In this document: positions 19,495 through 34,734 of the stretch, one piece after another
How the letters are laid out: every line of letters starts with the position of its first letter
Numbering within the stretch: position 1 is the first letter of the stretch
Source of the DNA: a virus
Lineage: Duplodnaviria > Caudoviricetes
Direction: 5' to 3' (one strand)
Length of the DNA: 38,150 nucleotides
Virus record (IMG/VR): IMGVR_UViG_3300032293_000894
Span: 1-38,150 of that record
Program-made: the position numbers and the translations under genes
Notes under the pieces: generated by a model
Told to the model about the DNA's origin: nothing
The model's database searches: none
Seen by the model: only the letters and a program-made list of their open reading frames with translations

Positions 19495-19956
19495 TTAAAT
19501 TGAAACTTCTTTCATTTGCGATTTTAAAAAATAAACAGGTGAGTTATCGTAAGTTGGAACACCATTTAAAGCAGTTGCTCTTTTGTGCAGACATTTAAAG
19601 TTAGGTATAAATTCGCATTCATCTTTAACTATTTTTCTCAGACGAAACTTCCTGAAATTTACATAGTAGTAAAGCATGTAGAAATCATAGTCAGGATTGT
19701 TTGCTGCCATGTTGTATTTAGAAACAGAAATTATGTTTGTAGGGTAGTTTGTCTTGGTATAAAGCAGTTTTACATCTACAAATATATCAAGCAGGTTAGG
19801 ATTATTATTTTTTCCGAAGTGGTCAAATATAACTCCTGTAACATCTTCTTTTCTTTGTTTGAAATCGTATTGCTGTAATAGTGGAAATAAAGTGATTGCT
19901 TTGTTTAATGCTCTTATTTCTTTGTCCCTATCTTCGGGTGTTTCGTAGTATGTCAT
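19495..19956 (-). CDS. Putative PD-(D/E)XK-fold nuclease
   Basis: FD...IFVDVK...IISVSKY pattern. Confidence 0.45.
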   Translation of the reverse strand: MTYYETPEDRDKEIRALNKAITLFPLLQQYDFKQRKEDVTGVIFDHFGKNNNPNLLDIFVDVKLLYTKTNYPTNIISVSKYNMAANNPDYDFYMLYYYVNFRKFRLRKIVKDECEFIPNFKCLHKRATALNGVPTYDNSPVYFLKSQMKEVSI

Positions 19957-20003
19957 GCCGTGCTATATGTTTCTCGGCAGGAACATTTACTTCAAATTTG
20001 GGA

Positions 20004-20043
20004 CTTACCACTGCTACTCTTGCGAATAACAGTGGCGAAGCGT
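20004..20043 (-). promoter_or_regulatory. GCAA-tetraloop hairpin at the 5' end of the transcript from promoter TTGAAT-N16-TATAAT (20077-20050)
   Basis: GCCACTGTTATTC-GCAA-GAGTAGCAGTGGT, 13-bp stem with G-U pairs. Confidence 0.6.
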
Positions 20044-20058
20044 AATAGAATTATACCT

Positions 20059-20083
20059 TACTTATAAATGTATTCAATGGGTA
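20059..20083. promoter_or_regulatory. Operator A: TACTTAT-N11-ATGGGTA
   Basis: One of six copies; overlaps the -35. Confidence 0.7.
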
Positions 20084-20087
20084 ATTT

Positions 20088-20132
20088 AAAAAAAGTGTCG
20101 GTAAAAAGGAGGTGAATCACAAATTACCGACA
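20088..20132 (-). ncRNA. Hairpin/intrinsic terminator with anti-Shine-Dalgarno loop; candidate ~44-nt sRNA
   Basis: TGTCGGTAA-TTTGTGATTCACCTCCTTT-TTACCGACA-CTTTTTTT; extended -10 TGcTACAAT at 20146-20138. Confidence 0.6.
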
Positions 20133-20147
20133 ACTTGATTGTAGCAC

Positions 20148-20735
20148 TTACTTTAAGAATTTTAAGTAAGCACCTGTGTTATAAGCAACCCAAGCATTCC
20201 ATCCTGAAGCATCATAAATCTGTTTGGCACACTTAATGTTACCTGTAACAGTTGAAACTTCTTTTAAGGAACAACCTTGTTTGCTGAAATGGATTGAGTT
20301 AATCTGAAACAATCCGACATCAATAGTGTTATTTGTATTGATGTTAAAAGCACTCTCTCTCATACCACTCTCTGCTTTAGCAACTGCAATCGCTTCTCTA
20401 CAATGTAGTCCGAAAGTATCGCAAATCTTCTTCTCAGTGTCATTTAAACCCTTGTAGAACTCAGGTTTGACTTCGTAGATGACTGCATCTAACTGAATTA
20501 CTTGTGGTCTATCTTTAATCACAATAGGTGATTGAATTTTAACTTCAACAGGGGTTTGATATACAACTTCGTGTGTTGCACCCCATCTTGCTGTAGCATC
20601 CATTGCGTATGCACCTGATAAAACTGCTGATATAATACTAATTGCATAAATGCCAATTTTGATTCTTCTTTTCGTTGCGAGTGATAAGAACTTCTTTTTT
20701 GGCATTTTGTATTTACCTTGTAAGTTTGTTTCCAT
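20148..20735 (-). CDS. Membrane-anchored lytic transglycosylase (SLT-like)
   Basis: N-terminal basic segment plus TM; AIAVAKAESG (catalytic Glu), DVGLFQIN, GWNAWVAY. Confidence 0.85.
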   Translation of the reverse strand: METNLQGKYKMPKKKFLSLATKRRIKIGIYAISIISAVLSGAYAMDATARWGATHEVVYQTPVEVKIQSPIVIKDRPQVIQLDAVIYEVKPEFYKGLNDTEKKICDTFGLHCREAIAVAKAESGMRESAFNINTNNTIDVGLFQINSIHFSKQGCSLKEVSTVTGNIKCAKQIYDASGWNAWVAYNTGAYLKFLK

Positions 20736-20851
20736 TATTTGTTCCTTCCTTCTATAAAAATTGCTACTGCAAGAAGTTTCTCGGTTATAGATGCCAAGAA
20801 CAACTTGCCTTCGTTTTGTAACCTAATTGTTAGGTCAAGCAGGTATAACAT
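20735..20851 (-). CDS. 38-aa peptide coupled to SLT (not in ORF track)
   Basis: SD GAAAGG; MLYLLDLTIRLQNEGKLFLASITEKLLAVAIFIEGRNK; TAATG overlap. Confidence 0.6.
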   Translation of the reverse strand: MLYLLDLTIRLQNEGKLFLASITEKLLAVAIFIEGRNK

Positions 20852-20874
20852 GTGTTATGTGCCTTTCAACTTAT

Positions 20875-20914
20875 TACTTATATTATATTAGTATGGGTAA
20901 GGGTGAAGTGTCAA
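20875..20914 (-). promoter_or_regulatory. Promoter (TTGACA at 20914-20909) with operator B TACTTAT-N11-ATGGGTA (20875-20899)
   Basis: Repeated motif. Confidence 0.7.
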
Positions 20915-20924
20915 TAGGGTAAAT

Positions 20925-20957
20925 AAAAAAGACCCCTGTCCGAAAAACAAGGGTCTT
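20925..20957 (-). terminator. Rho-independent terminator
   Basis: AAGACCCTTGT-loop-ACAGGGGTC-TTTTTT. Confidence 0.8.
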
Positions 20958-21018
20958 AATAAAGATGGTTCAGACTATCAAAAAATAGACCAAGTTATAG
21001 AAACAAAATGGATTATAA

Positions 21019-21408
21019 CTATTCAAGTATAACTGATTCCCAATTTCTATCAATATCGTAATCGGTAGTTTGTAGGTCTTTAATAAATTCGCTTGGAACT
21101 CCGTCTGCTTTTAAAAATGCATATACAAAAACTTTAACTGCAGATTCGCATTCAAATCTTCCTTGTATTGCCATTGCTAACCAATCAAATACTCTGTATC
21201 TTGCTAATGCTAAATCAAAATATATTTGAGATAACTCTGCTTCAGATGCTCCGAAGAAGTCAGCAGTTCCTAAAATAGTGTTTAGGTCATCCCTGTTTAG
21301 GATGTTAGCAACATCTCTTGATTCAGATTTGCCTTTAACTCTTTTGGACATTACTTGATTCCAAGCATCCAATCTACTTAATACTTTAATTGTTTTGATT
21401 TCGTTCAT
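21019..21408 (-). CDS. Hypothetical early protein
   Basis: 129 aa, SD GAAAGGT. Confidence 0.7.
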   Translation of the reverse strand: MNEIKTIKVLSRLDAWNQVMSKRVKGKSESRDVANILNRDDLNTILGTADFFGASEAELSQIYFDLALARYRVFDWLAMAIQGRFECESAVKVFVYAFLKADGVPSEFIKDLQTTDYDIDRNWESVILE

Positions 21409-21434
21409 AGATTACCTTTCATGAACTAACTACT

Positions 21435-21472
21435 TACTTATGATATATTACCATAGGTAAGTAGATAGTCAA
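21435..21472 (-). promoter_or_regulatory. Promoter TTGACT-N16-TAATAT with operator C TACTTAT-N11-ATAGGTA (21435-21459)
   Basis: Extended inverted repeat CTACTTAC...GTAAGTAG. Confidence 0.7.
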
Positions 21473-21482
21473 TAGATTAAAT

Positions 21483-21812
21483 TTAACTTAATTTTTTGGC
21501 ATACATATCAAGGTGTGCCTTGATTTCTAATCTTCTATTAAGATTGGTTTCATCAAATGTAAAACCACCATATTGGGATTTAGCATCTTTGATTTGCTCT
21601 AAAAAGAACCATGTGTAGTATTCAACAACCCTATCTTCAGTATCTTCGTTTCTATGTATTTCTCTGATAACTTCGTCAATGTAGTCCCAATCAAATATTC
21701 TATTAGTTATATGAACTAACGAATTGTAATCAATTTCGTAGATTACACTTTCTTCTTTATTTACTTTGAACTCAAACACTGTTTTATCAGTTCTTGGATT
21801 TTTATTTTTCAT
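21483..21812 (-). CDS. Hypothetical early protein
   Basis: 109 aa, SD GAAGGAG. Confidence 0.7.
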   Translation of the reverse strand: MKNKNPRTDKTVFEFKVNKEESVIYEIDYNSLVHITNRIFDWDYIDEVIREIHRNEDTEDRVVEYYTWFFLEQIKDAKSQYGGFTFDETNLNRRLEIKAHLDMYAKKLS

Positions 21813-22032
21813 CTGACTCCTTCAATGTTTTTTCAAGCAAATCTGCTTGTGTTTGAACAAGTTTGATTACTGTTTCAAAAGAACTAATTACTTTTGCTTG
21901 AACTTCAATTTGGGAAGCATCAATTTCATTTTTGATTGATGTTTCTTGGATGAAGTTAATATGACCAAGCAAGTCATTTAAAACATCAGCAGTGAATCTT
22001 AAAGATTCTGAGTTGTGTGCTTTTCTTTGCAT
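21802..22032 (-). CDS. Hypothetical helical protein
   Basis: 76 aa, SD GGAAGGT. Confidence 0.65.
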   Translation of the reverse strand: MQRKAHNSESLRFTADVLNDLLGHINFIQETSIKNEIDASQIEVQAKVISSFETVIKLVQTQADLLEKTLKESDEK

Positions 22033-22055
22033 AGGAGATTACCTTCCTAACTATT

Positions 22056-22094
22056 TACTCATGTTATATTATCATAAGTAAGTTAGTGTGTCAA
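22056..22094 (-). promoter_or_regulatory. Promoter TTGACA-N17-TAATAT with operator D TACTCAT-N11-ATAAGTA (22056-22080)
   Basis: Repeated motif. Confidence 0.75.
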
Positions 22095-22099
22095 TAAGA

Positions 22100-22369
22100 T
22101 TAGAAAATCCAATTCCAAATTCCTGATAAGAACCACCATCCGATTACAAAACATAAGATAATCCAAAACAATTCCCATAAGCACCCACCGACCCCAATAA
22201 TAAATCCTATAATCAATGAAACTCCATAAACTATGTAACCTAATACCACGACAAGAACATCCCAAACTTTTTTATAGAAGGGTTTATTTTTTTCTTCCAA
22301 GTATTTTTGGAATGCTTCAAGTTCTCTTGGAGTTGGTTCAAGTGAATCTAAATTATAATTTTGATTCAT
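22100..22369 (-). CDS. Small membrane protein
   Basis: 89 aa with long hydrophobic, Trp-rich C-terminal half. Confidence 0.65.
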   Translation of the reverse strand: MNQNYNLDSLEPTPRELEAFQKYLEEKNKPFYKKVWDVLVVVLGYIVYGVSLIIGFIIGVGGCLWELFWIILCFVIGWWFLSGIWNWIF

Positions 22370-22370
22370 A

Positions 22371-22616
22371 TTATTTTTTCTCCCATAAATTAACTACTCT
22401 TAAAAACTCAATTAACTCGTGTTTAGCAATGTCCTTAGGAAATGTTCTTTCATATAAAGTATGGGTGTCTTGGTCAATGGTAAATCTCCAATCGGTAGCA
22501 TCATCTTCTAAGTAATGCCTTCTGATGACCCATACACAATTAGTTCCATGTGCTAATGCCATTCCCCATCTGCTTGTATCAGTCCATAAACTTGCTGTAT
22601 TTGTTTCGTTAAACAT
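22371..22616 (-). CDS. Hypothetical protein (start reassigned to MFNETN)
   Basis: SD TAAGGA before ATG 22616. Confidence 0.6.
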   Translation of the reverse strand: MFNETNTASLWTDTSRWGMALAHGTNCVWVIRRHYLEDDATDWRFTIDQDTHTLYERTFPKDIAKHELIEFLRVVNLWEKK

Positions 22617-22624
22617 AGTTTTCC

Positions 22625-22720
22625 TTAACTTAATAAAGCAATCACAATTCCTACGATTGCAAACATAAATACTATTTGTAACCAAATTGGTGTGTCGTCT
22701 TGTTTCTTTTTTCTATACAT
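22625..22720 (-). CDS. 31-aa single-TM peptide (not in ORF track)
   Basis: MYRKKKQDDTPIWLQIVFMFAIVGIVIALLS; TAATG coupling. Confidence 0.6.
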   Translation of the reverse strand: MYRKKKQDDTPIWLQIVFMFAIVGIVIALLS

Positions 22721-22941
22721 TATTTTTTTTCTCCTTGTTCTACTGAATTAACTAATGTTTGAATTTGAATTACTGCTGTTTTAGAACCTTCAATAAACTT
22801 GTTCATCTGTTTAATAGTTTTTTTATCAATAGTCATTTCTCTTAATGACTCAGCATGACCGATAAGTTTTAGAAGTGTTCTAACAGTTATCTTCATATCA
22901 AGAACTAATTCAGGAGTCATTATTTGTTCCCCTTCTGACAA
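22720..22941 (-). CDS. Hypothetical protein
   Basis: ORF coupled to erf; real start may be ATG 22920. Confidence 0.6.
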   Translation of the reverse strand: MSEGEQIMTPELVLDMKITVRTLLKLIGHAESLREMTIDKKTIKQMNKFIEGSKTAVIQIQTLVNSVEQGEKK

Positions 22942-23519
22942 TCTCTACATAATTCAGCACCCATCATTTTTTTGGAATAAGATGCTTCGTTGATTGTGAT
23001 GTTCTTTTTGCATTTGCTACATGATTTACCATTAAGACCTGCACCTGTAGTTATTGTGCCGTTAGAACTCGCTACAATGGTTTTTACAACAGGTTTTACT
23101 TCAGTAACGGTTGCAATACCGTTTGTGTAATCAGAATCTTTTGTATCGTCTATTAGGAATAATCCGTTGAGTGCATATTTTCTTGCATAAGATGATGCAG
23201 CACCTGTAATTTGAGATGCATCCATACCCCTTTTGGTATCTTCTTCTCTTGCAAGACCTGTAACTGTTAAATACTCTTTGTCTTTAGAATCAAGGTCAGA
23301 TAATTGAACTGTTGCTTCAATGTAGTATCTACTTCCAATGAATTTTACTGCATCAGATATTCTTAAACCTAAGTTGTATTTAACAAGAAGTGGTTTAACT
23401 GCTTCTAAAATATCTTCTTGGTTTCTATATTTATAGTTACCAAAAGAATTAAATTGTGATTTTGGTGCTTTTAACTCTTGCTGCACCATTGCAAGTTTTT
23501 GAACTAAATTTTTTTCCAT
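22920..23519 (-). CDS. erf: ERF-family ssDNA annealing protein with C-terminal Zn finger
   Basis: LKAPKSQFNSFGNYKYRNQEDIL, QITGAASSYARKYAL; CSKC...CRDC. Confidence 0.9.
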   Translation of the reverse strand: MEKNLVQKLAMVQQELKAPKSQFNSFGNYKYRNQEDILEAVKPLLVKYNLGLRISDAVKFIGSRYYIEATVQLSDLDSKDKEYLTVTGLAREEDTKRGMDASQITGAASSYARKYALNGLFLIDDTKDSDYTNGIATVTEVKPVVKTIVASSNGTITTGAGLNGKSCSKCKKNITINEASYSKKMMGAELCRDCQKGNK

Positions 23520-27339: not shown

Positions 27340-30300
27340 TTAACACCTTAAACTATCAATGATGTCTTGTGCCGATTTAATTTTTTTGGCATCTTTGATA
27401 ACCTTCTTTAATTCTACTTTCTCTTTTTGTATTCTTTCAAATACTTCTTTTTTATTTGACTTTTTAAGTCCTAACATTGTTGCTCTTTGACCTAATCCAC
27501 CTGCAAATTTATCACCTAACTTGTTAAGTCGTGCATCCAATGCTCTTTTAATGTAGTTTTCTGCACTGTTGTCGTTAAACTGACCCCTTAAAGATGCAAT
27601 CTCTTGACCCCTTCTTGTGTTCTTTAGGGAGTTTCTAACCAAGACCTGTTTGTATAAATCTAAGTTACCAAGTTGTTTTAACCTTAGTGCTACTGCTACT
27701 TCAATAGTGTTTTCAAGGTAACCTGCAGGTGCTGATTCGTTACCAAGTGCAATGTTTAATGCTCTCATAGGGTCTGCTTCTATAAAGTTAATTGCTCTCT
27801 CAGATTCTCTTTCAAGGTTTGCTACATTGTAAGTTCCATCTACATCATTAAATCCAAATGCTTCAGGGTTAGTTCCAAGCAACTGCTCATTTAATCTTTC
27901 CATGAATCTTGATTTCTTAACCTTACCACCACCAACAGTTTCAGAAGGTGCTTCTACTTTTGGCATCTTTTTAGCACCAAGTTTCTTCTTTTCAGGTGGT
28001 GCTTGTGCTGCTTTTTTCTCTCCAAGTTTTGCAGTTTTTTTCTTTGCTTTTTCTCGTTCTGCTTTTATTTTTGCTGCTTTACCACTTAAAATTTCTTCAT
28101 ATAGTTTGTTAATAGCATCAAGATTTTCAAAATAACTGTTAGTTCTAACAAATAATTTTTCAAAAAAGTCCTGAATTTTACCTAATAAAGTAGATGTTTT
28201 TTGGATTCTTGCATTAGCAAAAGCAATAAAATCTTCAGCAATATGTTCTTCAAGAACTGCCATATCAGTAGTTTTATATTTAATAATTGCTTCTTTAAGT
28301 AATGCTTTTTGTTCAGCAGGTGTCATAAATATATCAATGTATTTATGGACTGCTTCGTGTAACCATGTATCAGTTGGTTGTGCCTGACCTGATAAGATAT
28401 AAACAAAATCTTCTCCGTAAGCACCAAGTGCATCCATAGAAGCAAGGATGTTCTGAACGAACTTTACATTTTCATCTCCAAATATTTTCTTGTTTAGTTT
28501 TTTAATTGTTTTTACTTGTTCGTCAGTTACATCTTGTCTTGTAATTTGAGCATCTTGTGATTTTCTATATGCTTTAATTTTTCCTATAGTTTCTCCATCA
28601 ATAACTTTTCTTATAAATGGAAAATCAGAAGGGGATAAAGTAAGTGTAGTGTTTTTTCCATATTTAGCAAAAAATGGCATGTATTTATTTTTATAATTGA
28701 TTCCTATAGGTGCTCTTTGTGATAAACCACTTATTAAGTATGAATTGTTGTAGGTTAAAAATACTTCAAAATTCTTCAAAATTGAATCTTGTATTTTTTT
28801 ATCTATAGATTTAAGTTCTTCTTCTGTGTAATTTTTTGCTTTCTGTTTTTTAACTTCAACATCTTTAAATTCTGTTTGAATTAAATTGATATTTGTTAGG
28901 TAGTTACTTATTGTTCTAATGTAGTTACCTATAAATCTTAATTGGTTTTTTTCAAGTTCGGTTTCACCCAATCCTTTTTCAAACAGTGTAGGATTTAAAT
29001 CTTCAAAAACTACATCTCTATTTTTATTAACTTCATCATTTTTAATATCAAGAATAATTTCACTTATAGATTTATTTGCATCTTTAATAGGGTCTTTTGC
29101 ATCTCTTATTTTTAATATTGTTTCATTTAATAGTTCTTCTGATGTTTTGTTTTCAGTTGGTGGAAATAAACTTGCAAGTGTTTTATAGGTTTCATTATTA
29201 AATATTCTTTTAAAAACAATGTTTCTATCACCCGTTAAAATAAAAGGGTCAGTTACTCTATATTCTCTTGTGCTATTTTCTACATAAGGTTTTAATGTTT
29301 CGGAAATATACATTGATGCACTTAATTGATTTAAAGTATCAATAATTGTTAATTCGTTTAAATACTCTTTATTTACTTTTTCAACATCAGTTTTTATTTG
29401 TTTTTGTTCTGCAAGTCTTTTTAGTGTTTCAGGAGTTAAACCTTCTTTTCTATTCAATCGTCTTAAATCATCACTTAAAACAATAATCTTATCGCTATTT
29501 GGAATTTGAAATGTGTTTGGGTATCCACCTGTTGCAAGAGATGTTTCAATATAATTTAATGCCTTTTGAGTTATATCAGTTTGTAATTTTTCAAGAGAAA
29601 TACTGTCAGCATAATCTCCGTATAATTCATCTGCTTCTTTTATAAGTTTTCTATTTTTATCTGAAAAATAACTATAGTTTGAAAAATCAAATGCAGGGTT
29701 ATTAAAATTACCTTCTTCTTTATAAATGTCTTGCAGTTTTTGTGGTAATTGTTTTAGTTCTTCATCTAAATTTAAATCTTTTGCATTAAGGTCTTTTAAA
29801 TCTTGATTATAAGTTTTTATGTTTTGCTTATAGTAACCAATATCGCCTTCAGCATCTGATATGTTTGAATCAATTTTTGAATTTAACTCGTTAAACACTC
29901 TTTCGTTTAAATCTTTAAGAAGTTTATTTTGATAATTGTTATCATAAATAAATTTAACTGTATTTTTAAACTTTTGTTTTTGAGTTTCGGATTCAAAACC
30001 TAAAGATAAATCATTTAGAAAATTTTGAAAAGAATCATAATCTTTATAAATATTTGCATCTACATACTCTTGGGAAGTTACTGCACCACTTTCATATACC
30101 TTTCTATTAGTGTCTATAAAACTTATGATGAAGTTATATTCGTAAGAAGTAGAAATTGAGTATTTTTTAAAGAACTCTATATATTTATCAAAAAAATATT
30201 TATCAAATTCGTTTGCTGTTTCTATCTTTGCGACATCATTTTGAATTTCTAAAGCATCTTTTTTTTGTTGTTTTTTTTCTACAAGTCTTTTTTCAGCACC

Positions 30301-33300
30301 ATCTAAAAATCTTGTAGTTCTTTCAAGTCCTTCTGTAGCATTTTGTTTTGCTTCAGTTTTATCTTTTAAAATTCTTAGAACTTTTTCAATATCTACTAAT
30401 TTAGTTTTTAAATCACCAACTTTTTCAATGCCATAAATGTTTTTCCAAATGTTGGTGATTTTATCTACTGTTGAATCTTTTTTAAAAGTTTCTAACCTTT
30501 TTTCTTTAAAGTTTTCTTTTGTGTATGTTTCAAAATCAAGATTATCTACTGCTGTAAATTTTTCATCATTTATTGTAATTATTGTCCAACTTGCTGAAGG
30601 ACTAATTTCAAATTCAACAACATCTCCGACTTCCAAATTATTTTTATCTTTTGCAGATAAGACTTTATATTTTTCTCCTTTAGGTTTATCAACAGGATTT
30701 GGATTCCAATTTACATGCCTTTCAACAACACCTAAAGTTAATGGTGTTGGAAAATTGACTGCTGTAGCACCTTTATCTCCATAATATCTAAGGATTTCTT
30801 TAATTGACCTTTCATGCCATGTTGCTAAATAGGTCATGTGCATTTTTTCAAGTTTTGTAGGTTTATAGTCTAAATAATCGTTTAACTTTTTTTGGTCTTT
30901 TTCTAATTGTTTATAAGCATAATCAATATTGTTGTTAATTTTTTCAATTCCTATTTTATGGTCGTTAATAAATTCTTCTCGTGCTTTAATTAAATTTTTG
31001 GTTTTTGGTTCTGATTGATTTAATAACCTTAAACTTTCTTCTCTATCTGCTATTCTTTGTTTTAGTTCTGCAATATCATTTTGGTAACCTTCTATATTTT
31101 TTTTCAATGCTTCTATTTGTTTATTAACAAATTTTGTTGTATCAATGTTGTCTGCACCATCAGTAACGGTATCTTGAAAAGGGTCTGATTGCATTTCAAG
31201 AATATAAATTTCACCTGTTTTTGTATCTTCAATAACTCTAAACCAAGAAAATAAACCTTCAGGTAAAGTATCTGCTAATTCAGGATTGGTTCTTATTAGT
31301 TCTTTTCTTTGGTTTTCATAGAAATCTATTCCAAATCTACCCCCTAAATGTTTATTTATTCTTTTATGGTCATAAGGAGAATTTAAAACTATAACTTTAG
31401 ATAAATATCTTCCTGAATCATCCATATTTAATGAAGTTCTTCCCATATTAAAAATTGCACTTTGCCCACTTGCTATTGTTGTGTCTTTTTCAAAAATTTG
31501 AATTGGTAATAATTCTTCTATTATTTTTTGATTTAATTGTCTTATAGAAACTTGACTGTCGTTTTTAAATTCTGTATCAAGTAATTCTTTTATTATTGCT
31601 ATTTCTTCTTTTGATATTCCGTATTTGGTTGTTGCATCTTTAAGAAATTTATCTATTTCTTGTTTTGATAAAGTATCTTTTTTAAAAGTTTGCAAAACTT
31701 CTTCAGTTCTTGTTGTTAGTTTTTGTGTTCCTTCGTTAAATAAAACATTGTCGGTTAATCTAAATTTTGGGGTTCTTTTATTTACATATTTTTCAATTTT
31801 ATTTTCAATGTATTTATCGTATTCATATAAAACCTTGTTAATATCAGCAATAACTTGGTCGTTTTCAAATTTTCCATTTTCAATAGTTTTTAAAATGCTT
31901 TGTAGTTTTGTTTGAAATGATTTAACTTTTGGGGTATCAGGGTTAATTGATAACAAATTGATAACAGGTGTATATTTTAATTTAAGTTGTTTTTTAAAAT
32001 CCCTTGAATTAGCACCTTCATTAGTTAGATAAGTAATTTTAAGTTTATTGATTTGAGAACTGCTGACTTCCTTGCCAAAAATAGCATTTTGCATAACCTT
32101 GTGAGCATTATCAACCTTATTTTGAGTTGCTTCTTTTATATTTGATTGGTCAAATACTGTTCCTGCTTTAACGGTAATAGGGTTAGGTTGTTTGGTTACA
32201 ACTTTTTTCTCCCCTACCTTTTTAACAGGTTTCTTTATTTCTTTTTTCTCAACCTTTTTTTCGCCAAGTTTCTTTTTCGGTGCTTCTTTTTCTACCTTCT
32301 TTCCTTTGTAATCAAGACCCTGTGATAAGTTCCATGCAGCAGTTGCTTCGCCTGTTTTGAGTGTAATTCCCTTGTCTTTAAGTTCCTTTTGACCTTTATC
32401 AGTTGCCAAGTAATTTAAAAATTCTGCTTGGTTTTTAAATCTTTTAGCAATGTTTTGAACATCAATGTCTTTATCTCCAAGCATTACATATTCAACACCA
32501 CCCCTTGAAGTAGTATTTTTAGTAACTGTATAACCTTTATCTAATAGGAATTTAGTTAATGCTTTTGTATCAACAAGCATCTCTTTAGGAACTATAGTTT
32601 GATTAGGATTTTCTTTAATTAAATCAAGATTGAAAACCTTTGTTCCTTTAGGAAGAGTTGATGTTTCGGAAATATCGCCAAATTGTTTAGCAAGTTGCTC
32701 ATTATCTCCGAAGTATTTTCCCCTAACAAGAGTTGAGAATCCTGTGCCTTTACCACCCCTATAAAGAGTTACATCTTGTTTAAGTGTTTCTTCAGCATCT
32801 TTTAGTTTAGCAACTTTAGGTTTAGTTTCCTTTTTAACCTGTTTAATAGACTTCTTAGCAGGTTTTTCTGTCGGAGTTGGTGTAACAGTTGGTTTAGTTT
32901 CAGTAGTGGTTGTAGGGGTAACCTGTGGGGTTGTAGCAGGTTGCTCAGGTGTAACCATTGGTTGAGTTTCAGGTGGGGTAACAAACCCTTCAGTTGGAGT
33001 TGTAGTAGGAGCAAATGCTTCTCTTACTCTTTCAGAAACATTTTCACCATCTACTACTATTTCTCTTAATGGTTCGCCTGTAAGGTTAGACCTTTTAAGT
33101 TCTTTAACGGCAGCATTATCTTTAACTTCTTCAACTATTGCTTGTTGTTCTGCAGTTCTTTTATTAACAGGGGTATCAAGTGCCTTATCAATGACTTTGT
33201 TTGCTTTATCTACTTGCTCAAGGGTAATACCGTCATTTTCATCAAAATTTTGCCTACCTGATAACAGGAATCCAAATATAAATGAAACAACTGATGTTTG

Positions 33301-34734
33301 GTCAGCACCTTCAAACCATTCAGGATTGTCTTTGTAGATTTCAGAAACTGCTGTTGCAACAAGGTCTTGTGAATTTTCTTCAATAACTTCCCCAAGTCCT
33401 GCTTTAGTTCTTCTAATACCACCTGTAACTAATCTTCTTTGTAGTTCGTTTTCAATCTTATCTGCATTTAATTTGCTAATTTTTATCTGACTTAATTTAT
33501 CGCTTAAACCTACTTTTGATATTGCAACGGAAATTGGTGCATAGATTCTTGCTGCTTGTTTTGCTTGTAATGGTGTAGAACCTTCTAAAATTGCTTGATT
33601 GTAGATGTTACCAAATTCGTTTCCGTAGTTAGTTGTAAGTGAAATTCCTGATAATGCAGCAGCAGTTTTAACTTTACCTTTTTTTAATGAATATGCTGCA
33701 AGTATTCCTGTTCCAAGACCTTCAACAATGTCAGCACCGTTTTCTGCAAGACCAAATAAAATTCCTGTAGGAGTGTAAAATTCAGGGTTTCCAAATCTTT
33801 CTCTTATTTCTTTTCTTTGTTGTTGAACATCTTTAAAATTACTAAGACCGTAGTTTTCTAACTGACCTTCAATAGTTTCTCCCTTTTTATTTCTTTCATC
33901 TATTTTTCTAAGTTCTTCCTGTAATCTCTGAACTTCTTTTATCTTTTCTAACTTTTCTTCTTCTGTAAGGTTAGGTCTATCAGCATATAAATTAGCAGTA
34001 ATCTGACTTACTTCCCCTGATTTTTGCCTTCTATCTTCTTCTTCCCAAAATGCAATTTCGGCATCAATTCCTTTTAACTGATTTTTTGTTCTTTCAACAA
34101 GTTCTTTGTTGTTTGTAAATTTGGCATTTTCTTCGTAGATTTTTAATTCTTCATTTAATCTTTCTTTTCTTGCTTTTAGTTGTTCTGCAGGTGGAGTTCC
34201 TTGTGGTAATACTGCACCTACCCCTTCTACAATGTTCCTTAATCCACCAACAATAGGAAGTTCAGCATTATAAACACTCTGACCAAATTCTTCTAAAGCA
34301 TTTCTTTCAATCTTTTTACCTAATTGAATTTCAGCATTAAGGTTTTCAATCTGTCTGTTAATTTGATTCTTTGTATTTGCAGTTCCTACATAAGGGATTG
34401 CTGAAACTTCCTGACTTGCAGTAGTTCCTACAATGTTTCCAAAAGTTTGTTTAGCACCTGTTAAAAGAAGTTCCCCTGCACCATACAATGCTTTACCTGC
34501 ATCAGAAGCACCTTGTGTAATAGAATCCCACCAACCTTTTGGTTGTGTAGGTGCTGCTGTGGGTTGTGCTGTTTGTTGTAATTGCTGTTTTCCTTGTCTA
34601 TAAAAATCACTTAATCCACTTGTGTTTGTAGAAGTGGTTGGTTGTGAAACAGGTGGTTGTGCAGGTGGGTTACTTCCTGATTGTGGTTGATTATTATTTT
34701 GTTGTTTCCCTTTTAAATAAAACTCTGATGGCAT
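27340..34734 (-). CDS. Giant polyvalent ejection protein (ART-like, EMQSD and zincin HEAVH domains)
   Basis: 2464 aa; LYRG..KYF..A..FG...KGY...EYVM; YILEMQSD; HEAVH...EEHIAEDF. Confidence 0.65.
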   Translation of the reverse strand: MPSEFYLKGKQQNNNQPQSGSNPPAQPPVSQPTTSTNTSGLSDFYRQGKQQLQQTAQPTAAPTQPKGWWDSITQGASDAGKALYGAGELLLTGAKQTFGNIVGTTASQEVSAIPYVGTANTKNQINRQIENLNAEIQLGKKIERNALEEFGQSVYNAELPIVGGLRNIVEGVGAVLPQGTPPAEQLKARKERLNEELKIYEENAKFTNNKELVERTKNQLKGIDAEIAFWEEEDRRQKSGEVSQITANLYADRPNLTEEEKLEKIKEVQRLQEELRKIDERNKKGETIEGQLENYGLSNFKDVQQQRKEIRERFGNPEFYTPTGILFGLAENGADIVEGLGTGILAAYSLKKGKVKTAAALSGISLTTNYGNEFGNIYNQAILEGSTPLQAKQAARIYAPISVAISKVGLSDKLSQIKISKLNADKIENELQRRLVTGGIRRTKAGLGEVIEENSQDLVATAVSEIYKDNPEWFEGADQTSVVSFIFGFLLSGRQNFDENDGITLEQVDKANKVIDKALDTPVNKRTAEQQAIVEEVKDNAAVKELKRSNLTGEPLREIVVDGENVSERVREAFAPTTTPTEGFVTPPETQPMVTPEQPATTPQVTPTTTTETKPTVTPTPTEKPAKKSIKQVKKETKPKVAKLKDAEETLKQDVTLYRGGKGTGFSTLVRGKYFGDNEQLAKQFGDISETSTLPKGTKVFNLDLIKENPNQTIVPKEMLVDTKALTKFLLDKGYTVTKNTTSRGGVEYVMLGDKDIDVQNIAKRFKNQAEFLNYLATDKGQKELKDKGITLKTGEATAAWNLSQGLDYKGKKVEKEAPKKKLGEKKVEKKEIKKPVKKVGEKKVVTKQPNPITVKAGTVFDQSNIKEATQNKVDNAHKVMQNAIFGKEVSSSQINKLKITYLTNEGANSRDFKKQLKLKYTPVINLLSINPDTPKVKSFQTKLQSILKTIENGKFENDQVIADINKVLYEYDKYIENKIEKYVNKRTPKFRLTDNVLFNEGTQKLTTRTEEVLQTFKKDTLSKQEIDKFLKDATTKYGISKEEIAIIKELLDTEFKNDSQVSIRQLNQKIIEELLPIQIFEKDTTIASGQSAIFNMGRTSLNMDDSGRYLSKVIVLNSPYDHKRINKHLGGRFGIDFYENQRKELIRTNPELADTLPEGLFSWFRVIEDTKTGEIYILEMQSDPFQDTVTDGADNIDTTKFVNKQIEALKKNIEGYQNDIAELKQRIADREESLRLLNQSEPKTKNLIKAREEFINDHKIGIEKINNNIDYAYKQLEKDQKKLNDYLDYKPTKLEKMHMTYLATWHERSIKEILRYYGDKGATAVNFPTPLTLGVVERHVNWNPNPVDKPKGEKYKVLSAKDKNNLEVGDVVEFEISPSASWTIITINDEKFTAVDNLDFETYTKENFKEKRLETFKKDSTVDKITNIWKNIYGIEKVGDLKTKLVDIEKVLRILKDKTEAKQNATEGLERTTRFLDGAEKRLVEKKQQKKDALEIQNDVAKIETANEFDKYFFDKYIEFFKKYSISTSYEYNFIISFIDTNRKVYESGAVTSQEYVDANIYKDYDSFQNFLNDLSLGFESETQKQKFKNTVKFIYDNNYQNKLLKDLNERVFNELNSKIDSNISDAEGDIGYYKQNIKTYNQDLKDLNAKDLNLDEELKQLPQKLQDIYKEEGNFNNPAFDFSNYSYFSDKNRKLIKEADELYGDYADSISLEKLQTDITQKALNYIETSLATGGYPNTFQIPNSDKIIVLSDDLRRLNRKEGLTPETLKRLAEQKQIKTDVEKVNKEYLNELTIIDTLNQLSASMYISETLKPYVENSTREYRVTDPFILTGDRNIVFKRIFNNETYKTLASLFPPTENKTSEELLNETILKIRDAKDPIKDANKSISEIILDIKNDEVNKNRDVVFEDLNPTLFEKGLGETELEKNQLRFIGNYIRTISNYLTNINLIQTEFKDVEVKKQKAKNYTEEELKSIDKKIQDSILKNFEVFLTYNNSYLISGLSQRAPIGINYKNKYMPFFAKYGKNTTLTLSPSDFPFIRKVIDGETIGKIKAYRKSQDAQITRQDVTDEQVKTIKKLNKKIFGDENVKFVQNILASMDALGAYGEDFVYILSGQAQPTDTWLHEAVHKYIDIFMTPAEQKALLKEAIIKYKTTDMAVLEEHIAEDFIAFANARIQKTSTLLGKIQDFFEKLFVRTNSYFENLDAINKLYEEILSGKAAKIKAEREKAKKKTAKLGEKKAAQAPPEKKKLGAKKMPKVEAPSETVGGGKVKKSRFMERLNEQLLGTNPEAFGFNDVDGTYNVANLERESERAINFIEADPMRALNIALGNESAPAGYLENTIEVAVALRLKQLGNLDLYKQVLVRNSLKNTRRGQEIASLRGQFNDNSAENYIKRALDARLNKLGDKFAGGLGQRATMLGLKKSNKKEVFERIQKEKVELKKVIKDAKKIKSAQDIIDSLRC

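Follow-up and report, generated by a model that had tools for sequence, protein, structure and literature searches.

The window analysed here, that is, the whole stretch of DNA, is a 38,150-bp virus record (34% GC, with direct terminal repeats) whose minus strand carries the genes, among them those for a terminase, a capsid protein, Erf, a replication initiator and a CHAP endolysin. None of the cultured phages is close, their terminase and capsid matches reaching at most 41% identity. The locus of interest lies at the end of a gene for an SLT_3/lysozyme-like protein, for which 71 homologues were found. Alignable hairpins come from three sequences, namely the window, L001 (SLT 86% identical to that of the window) and L171 (SLT 70% identical); L001 is carried, together with L042, on G003, a 37-kb contig from a sister phage. 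The features of the locus, in the 5' to 3' order of the minus strand, are the following.

20929..20957, minus strand: neighbouring ordinary terminator, used as an internal control; in L042 the outer stem is kept, and the loop and upper stem are changed
20885..20914, minus strand: sigma-70-like promoter (TTGACA ... TAATAT) of the unit formed by the small ORF and the SLT gene, present also in L042 and L171
20735..20851, minus strand: small conserved ORF (38 aa) with GAAAGG as its site; TAATG couples it to the start of the SLT gene
20148..20735, minus strand: SLT_3/lysozyme-like gene of 195 aa whose product has a hydrophobic segment at its N terminus (PF18896, 42.2 bits against a cut-off of 27)
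20138..20146, minus strand: TGcTACAAT, an extended -10-like box predicted to drive a short RNA, with a weak -35 (TTAAAA) at 20165-20160
20131-20124, minus strand: 5' arm of the hairpin, GUCGGUAA
20124..20132, minus strand: 9-nt form of the 5' arm, UGUCGGUAA; an imperfect AAG helix can extend the stem in the mRNA context
20123-20105, minus strand: 19-nt loop, UUUGUGAUUCACCUCCUUU
20105-20116, minus strand: part of the loop, UUCACCUCCUUU, the 12-nt complement of AAAGGAGGUGAA
20104-20097, minus strand: 3' arm, UUACCGAC, followed by AC
20096..20104, minus strand: 9-nt form of the 3' arm, UUACCGACA
20094-20088, minus strand: U7 tract of the predicted intrinsic terminator (four U and then AAUUU in L001, five U in L171)
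20050..20077, minus strand: next promoter (TTGAAT-16-TATAAT), downstream of the terminator and exact in L001

The 38-aa ORF is below the usual gene-calling size and has no match in Pfam; its protein is nearly identical in L042 and L171, though the SLT of L171 is only 70% identical, and the constraint could act on the peptide or on RNA structure. Elsewhere on the minus strand of the window, several early genes (21019-23519) have a common leader, AGTAGTTA...GAAAGGTAAT, ahead of the ATG, possibly a common regulatory motif. A 2464-aa protein (27340-34734) without a PHROG or Pfam match adjoins proteins of 754 and 356 aa of no assigned function, and the three are, by their position, possibly virion ejection proteins. 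In L104, L191 and L204, the SLT-family genes adjoin genes that, from their translations only, we take to resemble heptose/GHMP-kinase sugar enzymes.

The hairpin starts about 15 nt past the SLT stop codon, and its stem, 19-nt loop and U7 tract, like the TGcTACAAT box ahead of them, all lie on the minus strand where a first-pass annotation of this DNA had placed them. For the predicted 44-nt unit, the folding energy is -11.7 kcal/mol (z -4.96; none of 200 shuffles is as good), and within this predicted fold a weak 3-bp helix leaves the UCC of the anti-Shine-Dalgarno (anti-SD) segment half closed. The anti-SD 10-mer, TCACCTCCTT, occurs once on the coding strand, against 0.016 expected under an order-2 Markov model. 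A GC-rich covarying stem, a U tract and a position just past a stop codon are the features of an intrinsic terminator, and the hairpin is predicted to end the small-ORF/SLT unit; a simple terminator scan missed it because the loop limit of that scan is 8 nt. With a +1 at G20131, the stem would have 8 bp and two bases would stand before the U tract, making the terminator weaker than it is within the mRNA. Rfam models run over 19900-21100 gave six weak matches, all far under their gathering scores, and no family; the best match over the hairpin was Yfr19 (22 bits against 70), and the thresholds of the RF02278 toxic sRNA, 6C and C4 families were not reached by the hairpin.

Across the window, L001 and L171, both partners have changed in four of the nine stem pairs and 26 of 27 cells pair, against 14-58% in slid controls; because there are three sequences and the structure was drawn from one of them, this covariation is supportive and does not amount to a p-value. 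In L171, the loop on this same stem is replaced by a GCAA-capped helix and there is no anti-SD, so the stem appears to have been a terminator first, and this locus serves as a natural loop-less control. The L171 loop also resembles the reverse complement of the -10 box; given its folding into a helix capped by GCAA, we put this likeness down to chance.

The loop itself differs at 0 of 19 positions between the window and G003, and the stem arms at 5 of 16, mostly in a compensatory manner. Fourfold-degenerate sites of the same pair differ at 120 of 385 (0.31), a divergence at which an unchanged 19-mer has a P of about 8e-4. The control terminator about 800 bp upstream shows the reverse pattern in this pair, with the outer stem kept and the loop changed. 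As a caveat, the next promoter is as invariant in L001 as the loop, and we therefore regard the whole interval as constrained. Contigs from sequencing reads were compared from 4 of 17 runs, and X10 gave nothing. The X3 contig has one change in the hairpin, which on the minus strand pairs as G-U and on the plus strand gives A-C, and the X5 contig has none; each has 14 listed changes in the adjacent 183 bases of the SLT gene (20148-20330). The X8 contig, with no listed hairpin change, was left uncounted because two unlisted differences lie near the ends of its pieces. The three compared runs with relatives are labelled freshwater or aquatic, and no RNA run is listed as containing such sequences. 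Judged from these alignments, the loop looks selected in the lineage that bears it. The conserved loop on a covarying stem that the first-pass annotation had looked for is thus borne out in the sister lineage (L001/G003), and since all carriers belong to one lineage, they count as about two independent sequences. The opposite picture, of a hairpin that is only a terminator or whose loop is not conserved, is in part right, as L171 has the stem without the loop, and in part contradicted by the unchanged loop in L001/G003.

The possible partners of this loop can be approached through the other SLT-family phages, which presumably share a host group and from which we draw host start-site usage. In 34 related phage records, TCACCTCCTT was matched at 30 places, 29 of them distinct, and in 28 of the 29 distinct AAGGAGGTGA sites an ATG comes 2-8 nt after, the exception being the hairpin in G003. 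The base following GGAGGTGA is an A in 19 of the 28 start sites (P 4e-4 against 0.35), so the extra U of the loop pairs with real start sites, and half of the sites (14/28) pair with the loop over at least 12 contiguous bases. Duplexes of the loop with these 28 sites have energies of -17.7 to -21.7 kcal/mol (median -18.7), and duplexes with nine start sites of the window itself, -5.9 to -11.5 kcal/mol. GGAGG stands upstream of none of the 41 called genes of the window and none of the 42 of G003, and the proposal that the start sites of the phage itself would for the most part be spared by the RNA is supported by this and by the weak duplexes; because the escape follows from the GAGG purge described below, it is not independent evidence for the RNA. 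No matching target for the loop was found within the window, where the best coding-strand sites (-18.0 and -17.1 kcal/mol) are G-U-rich and lie inside terL. Compared with the class of RNAs that have anti-SD or C-rich loops, the hairpin has a conserved segment complementary to ribosome-binding sites in one lineage, its seed lies partly in predicted weak pairing, and the segment is absent in L171.

Part of this picture is explained by the words that the phage avoids. On both strands together, CCTC/GAGG occurs nine times in the window against 99 expected and four times in G003 against 78, and synonymous-codon shuffles confirm the avoidance in coding sequence. Such strand-symmetric avoidance is probably that of a restriction site. 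In G003, the sole coding-strand CCTC is the hairpin loop. As the both-strand avoidance explains the missing AGGAGG sites, these are not independent evidence for an RNA; likewise, a contrast in GGAGG start sites (0/83 against 8/134, P 0.025) was dropped as evidence, there being one carrier lineage and the GAGG avoidance explaining it. Among related phages, G008 (L352-L353) has no GGAGG in coding sequence against 50 expected; its single CCTCC/GGAGG in 40 kb is at a start site, and it has no TCACCTCCTT match. GATC, AGCT, CCAG/CTGG, GTAC, TCGA, AGCC/GGCT and ACGT are absent from both strands of the window and G003, and of the words tested the relatives G013, G017 and G005 have only the CCAG/CTGG gap in common with them; the pattern suggests a host with many restriction systems.

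The loop could be displayed by an RNA of its own. TGcTACAAT ends six bases ahead of G20131, a spacing that matches four apparently leaderless genes (6, 6, 7 and 8 nt), and a TG with a hexamer matching at 5/6 at a spacing of 5-7 is found by chance at 0.07% of coding-strand positions. The box is identical in L001 at 9 of 9 positions despite lying past the stop codon, and the next six bases (the discriminator) differ at three. As L171 has an in-register -10-like hexamer (5/6) without the loop, the box is not specific to the anti-SD form; the hairpin of the unrelated phage L401, described below, has no such promoter box on reading. The +1 at G20131 and the RNA of about 44 nt are predictions only, and the loop would be on display in either such an RNA or a stable 3' end of the mRNA.

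Based on these results, we favour a model, whose chances we consider about even, in which a terminator has been co-opted in one lineage as an antisense RNA against ribosome-binding sites, made from its own promoter or as an mRNA 3' end. The comparisons of sequence behind it give a covarying stem, a constrained loop, its complementarity to strong start sites, and own start sites that do not match it. From these, we infer transcription of the minus strand, targets and repression. The minus strand would be transcribed as a 44-nt RNA from TGcTACAAT, as an mRNA 3' end, or as both, and the loop would be an antisense seed covering strong AAAGGAGGUGAA sites on non-phage messages, those of the host or of co-infecting phages with such sites. 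By the precedent of the 6C RNA, its G-C-rich pairing would need no chaperone. Phage genes that are leaderless, coupled or led by GAAAGG would be spared, and restriction-like loss of GAGG, having stripped the phage of its own strong sites, would make such an RNA cheap to carry. On the evidence of the sequences, the loop likely dampens translation of host or rival-phage messages. A more far-reaching version, which we put forward tentatively and think rather less probable than not, is that the erasure of GAGG by restriction pressure, which left the genes of this lineage leaderless, coupled or with weak GAAAGG sites, has turned an immunity into a weapon, the 44-nt RNA broadly masking AAAGGAGGUGAA sites in a protein-free takeover, possibly of CPR bacteria; ribosomes would then be shifted away from host messages and from rival phages dependent on those sites.

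It is unlikely, in our view, that the hairpin is an ordinary terminator whose loop is an inverted fragment of a ribosome-binding site, gained by recombination and with no role of its own. The narrow distribution of the loop speaks for this relic. Among the 86 SLT loci examined (of 160), it was found only in L090, L091 and L170, all of the same sister lineage; it is missing from L096 and L100, syntenic relatives with a terminase identity of about 68% and without TCACCTCCTT anywhere in their records, and from more distant relatives. In L171 the same stem bears a plain terminator with a GCAA cap, and the terminator-like hairpins that follow the SLT genes of L100, L104 and L191 are unrelated; independent carriers are few. 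In IMG/VR, none of the 37 matches to a stem-plus-loop pattern is the hairpin, two of the six exact-loop matches are the sister contigs, and the three stem-plus-promoter matches are the two sister contigs and L252, a candidate rejected as it has no such hairpin on reading. A loop-plus-U-tail pattern gave 47 matches (37 distinct), mostly opposite-strand start sites, and one of the 37, L401, is in a hairpin. Of 520 ACCTCC sites in a scan of 305 loci (1.92 Mb), three fall within the loop of a hairpin that has a U-rich tail, namely in the window, G003 and L056 (8-nt loop); this filter has a background, because five other motifs gave 1-4 matches each in the same scan, two of which re-find the hairpin. 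Against a relic stand the invariance of the loop at a synonymous divergence of 0.31, where the loop of the control terminator has changed, the retention of a word purged about tenfold or more elsewhere, and the recurrence of this 13-nt core in the unrelated phage L401 (G035), where it again sits in a terminator loop but on another stem. The L401 hairpin (G035:C1, about 34000-34050) is a terminator between convergent genes on a 74-kb phage fragment, with the loop GAUUCACCUCCUUU; there, cis pairing is possible because the gene that it ends has a AAAAAGGAGGU start site.

Improbable, too, is an antisense RNA against one message (a host defence, a toxin, a repressor or a rival phage gene), comparable to c4 and directed at a leader with a match to most of the loop's 19 nt. 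UUGUGA, on the 5' side of the loop, is not part of the generic complement and does not differ in L001 either, as would fit such a single target. The sites on offer do not fit, since the best in the window are the G-U-rich ones inside terL and the one complete complement of the loop (19/19) found elsewhere, in L085, lies inside a long ORF and not at a start.

The first-pass annotation had put the hairpin forward as a candidate decoy of the 16S rRNA 3' tail, the commonest form of which is reported to be GATCACCTCCTTT (PMC6107228). The likeness is real: the loop matches the tail over 11 nt (UCACCUCCUUU) and carries 13 of 13 tail bases with one inserted U. We consider it very unlikely that the loop serves as a protein decoy of that tail, soaking up Era-like proteins or substituting for the substrate of a toxin. 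Besides the 13 shared bases, this explanation can draw on CACCU in the loop, a reported cleavage consensus of MazF-mt11 (PMC12274833), and RelE1 is described as also releasing the anti-SD (PMC12620021). The Era KH domain is reported to read the GAUCA of the tail (PMC10582724), however, and the inserted U breaks this word, the loop reading GAUUCA; unlike the tail, the hairpin has no helix 45 next to its split GAUCA and no free 3' end, and Rfam returned no family. In the window, CACCT (45 against 36 expected on the coding strand) and TCCTT (22 against 27) are not depleted, and so there is no sign of an anti-SD-cleaving toxin in the host. We prefer an antisense seed to a 16S mimic because the extra U breaks GAUCA yet pairs with the A of targets, which makes decoy the weaker label. 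As for the suggestion that this U removes a GATC, that word is indeed avoided (0 in the window against about 102 expected) and its avoidance may contribute, but U-A pairing fits at least as well.

A DNA-level function, with the loop palindrome GTGATTCAC as an operator between two promoters or CCTC kept for restriction or methylation, has very little probability; GTGANTCAC does occur a single time in each of the window and G003, both times at the loop, but this would leave the conserved CUCCUUU half and the match to start sites unexplained, and there is no second operator copy. Hardly credible, finally, is that the plus strand is the RNA, a hairpin showing a perfect SD that traps 30S subunits: it folds nearly as well (-10.0 kcal/mol, z -3.78), but the minus strand is the one that carries the genes and has a U tract after the stem, no plus-strand promoter is listed nearby and the X3 variant pairs as G-U on the minus strand only. 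After the plus-strand AAGGAGGTGA, no ATG, GTG or TTG stands at normal spacing, which agrees with the earlier view that it is not a used ribosome-binding site, and no opposite-strand toxin ORF uses this complementary SD in the manner of a type I system; an ATT-started frame of 37 codons in the window shrinks to 6 in L001, and is thus not kept.

The co-opted antisense terminator that we favour has partial counterparts among known systems. The RF02278 'toxic small RNAs' of Burkholderia, double hairpins whose overexpression is reported to slow growth and which have many predicted targets in start regions (PMC5688073, PMC4603805), resemble the phage hairpin, as described there, in being very short with CU-rich unpaired stretches complementary to ribosome-binding sites. 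They are chromosomal, have two hairpins and belong to Betaproteobacteria, whereas the present element is borne by a phage, has one hairpin that doubles as a terminator, and has a longer, 12-nt complement. The 6C sRNA of Actinobacteria, reported to pair directly with several mRNAs through C-rich loops and without a chaperone (PMC6486639), offers the same type of pairing as that proposed here; by that account it differs in its two C-rich loops, its chromosomal location and its high-GC hosts, and the phage hairpin has no Rfam match. The 3'-UTR of icaR in Staphylococcus aureus likewise has an anti-SD motif at an mRNA 3' end (PMC3868564), but is described as acting in cis on its own SD; the SLT start is translationally coupled and pairs with the loop at -8.4 kcal/mol, so that strong pairing with the SD of the same mRNA was not found. 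In the c4 antisense RNA of phages P1 and P7, phage RNA loops are reported to block a ribosome-binding region (PMC12197685), that of the phage's own ant mRNA; the window has no matching target. The parts searched of that 2025 review of phage sRNAs contain no generic anti-SD RNA, and in the open-licence literature we found no phage RNA that generically masks strong ribosome-binding sites.

The host can be approached from several sides. A genome scan gave weak Burkholderiales SLT matches only, a cluster look-up returned no organisms, and the Atlas taxa rest on few members. Leaderless TATAAT starts, the names of 0.1-micron groundwater contigs among the SLT relatives and motifs known from Roizmanbacteria may together point to a host among the CPR/Microgenomates. 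TAA/AAT 'RBS' motifs have been reported for Roizmanbacteria (PMC6509639), and the anti-SD is reported to be wholly missing from some Parcubacteria (PMC9297842).

In conclusion, with CCTC purged genome-wide and one site kept, the case for selection is unusually clean for a non-coding element. Anti-SD loops are already known from chromosomal sRNAs; if our reading is true, the hairpin of this phage lineage would be a minimal device for host takeover or for competition between phages.
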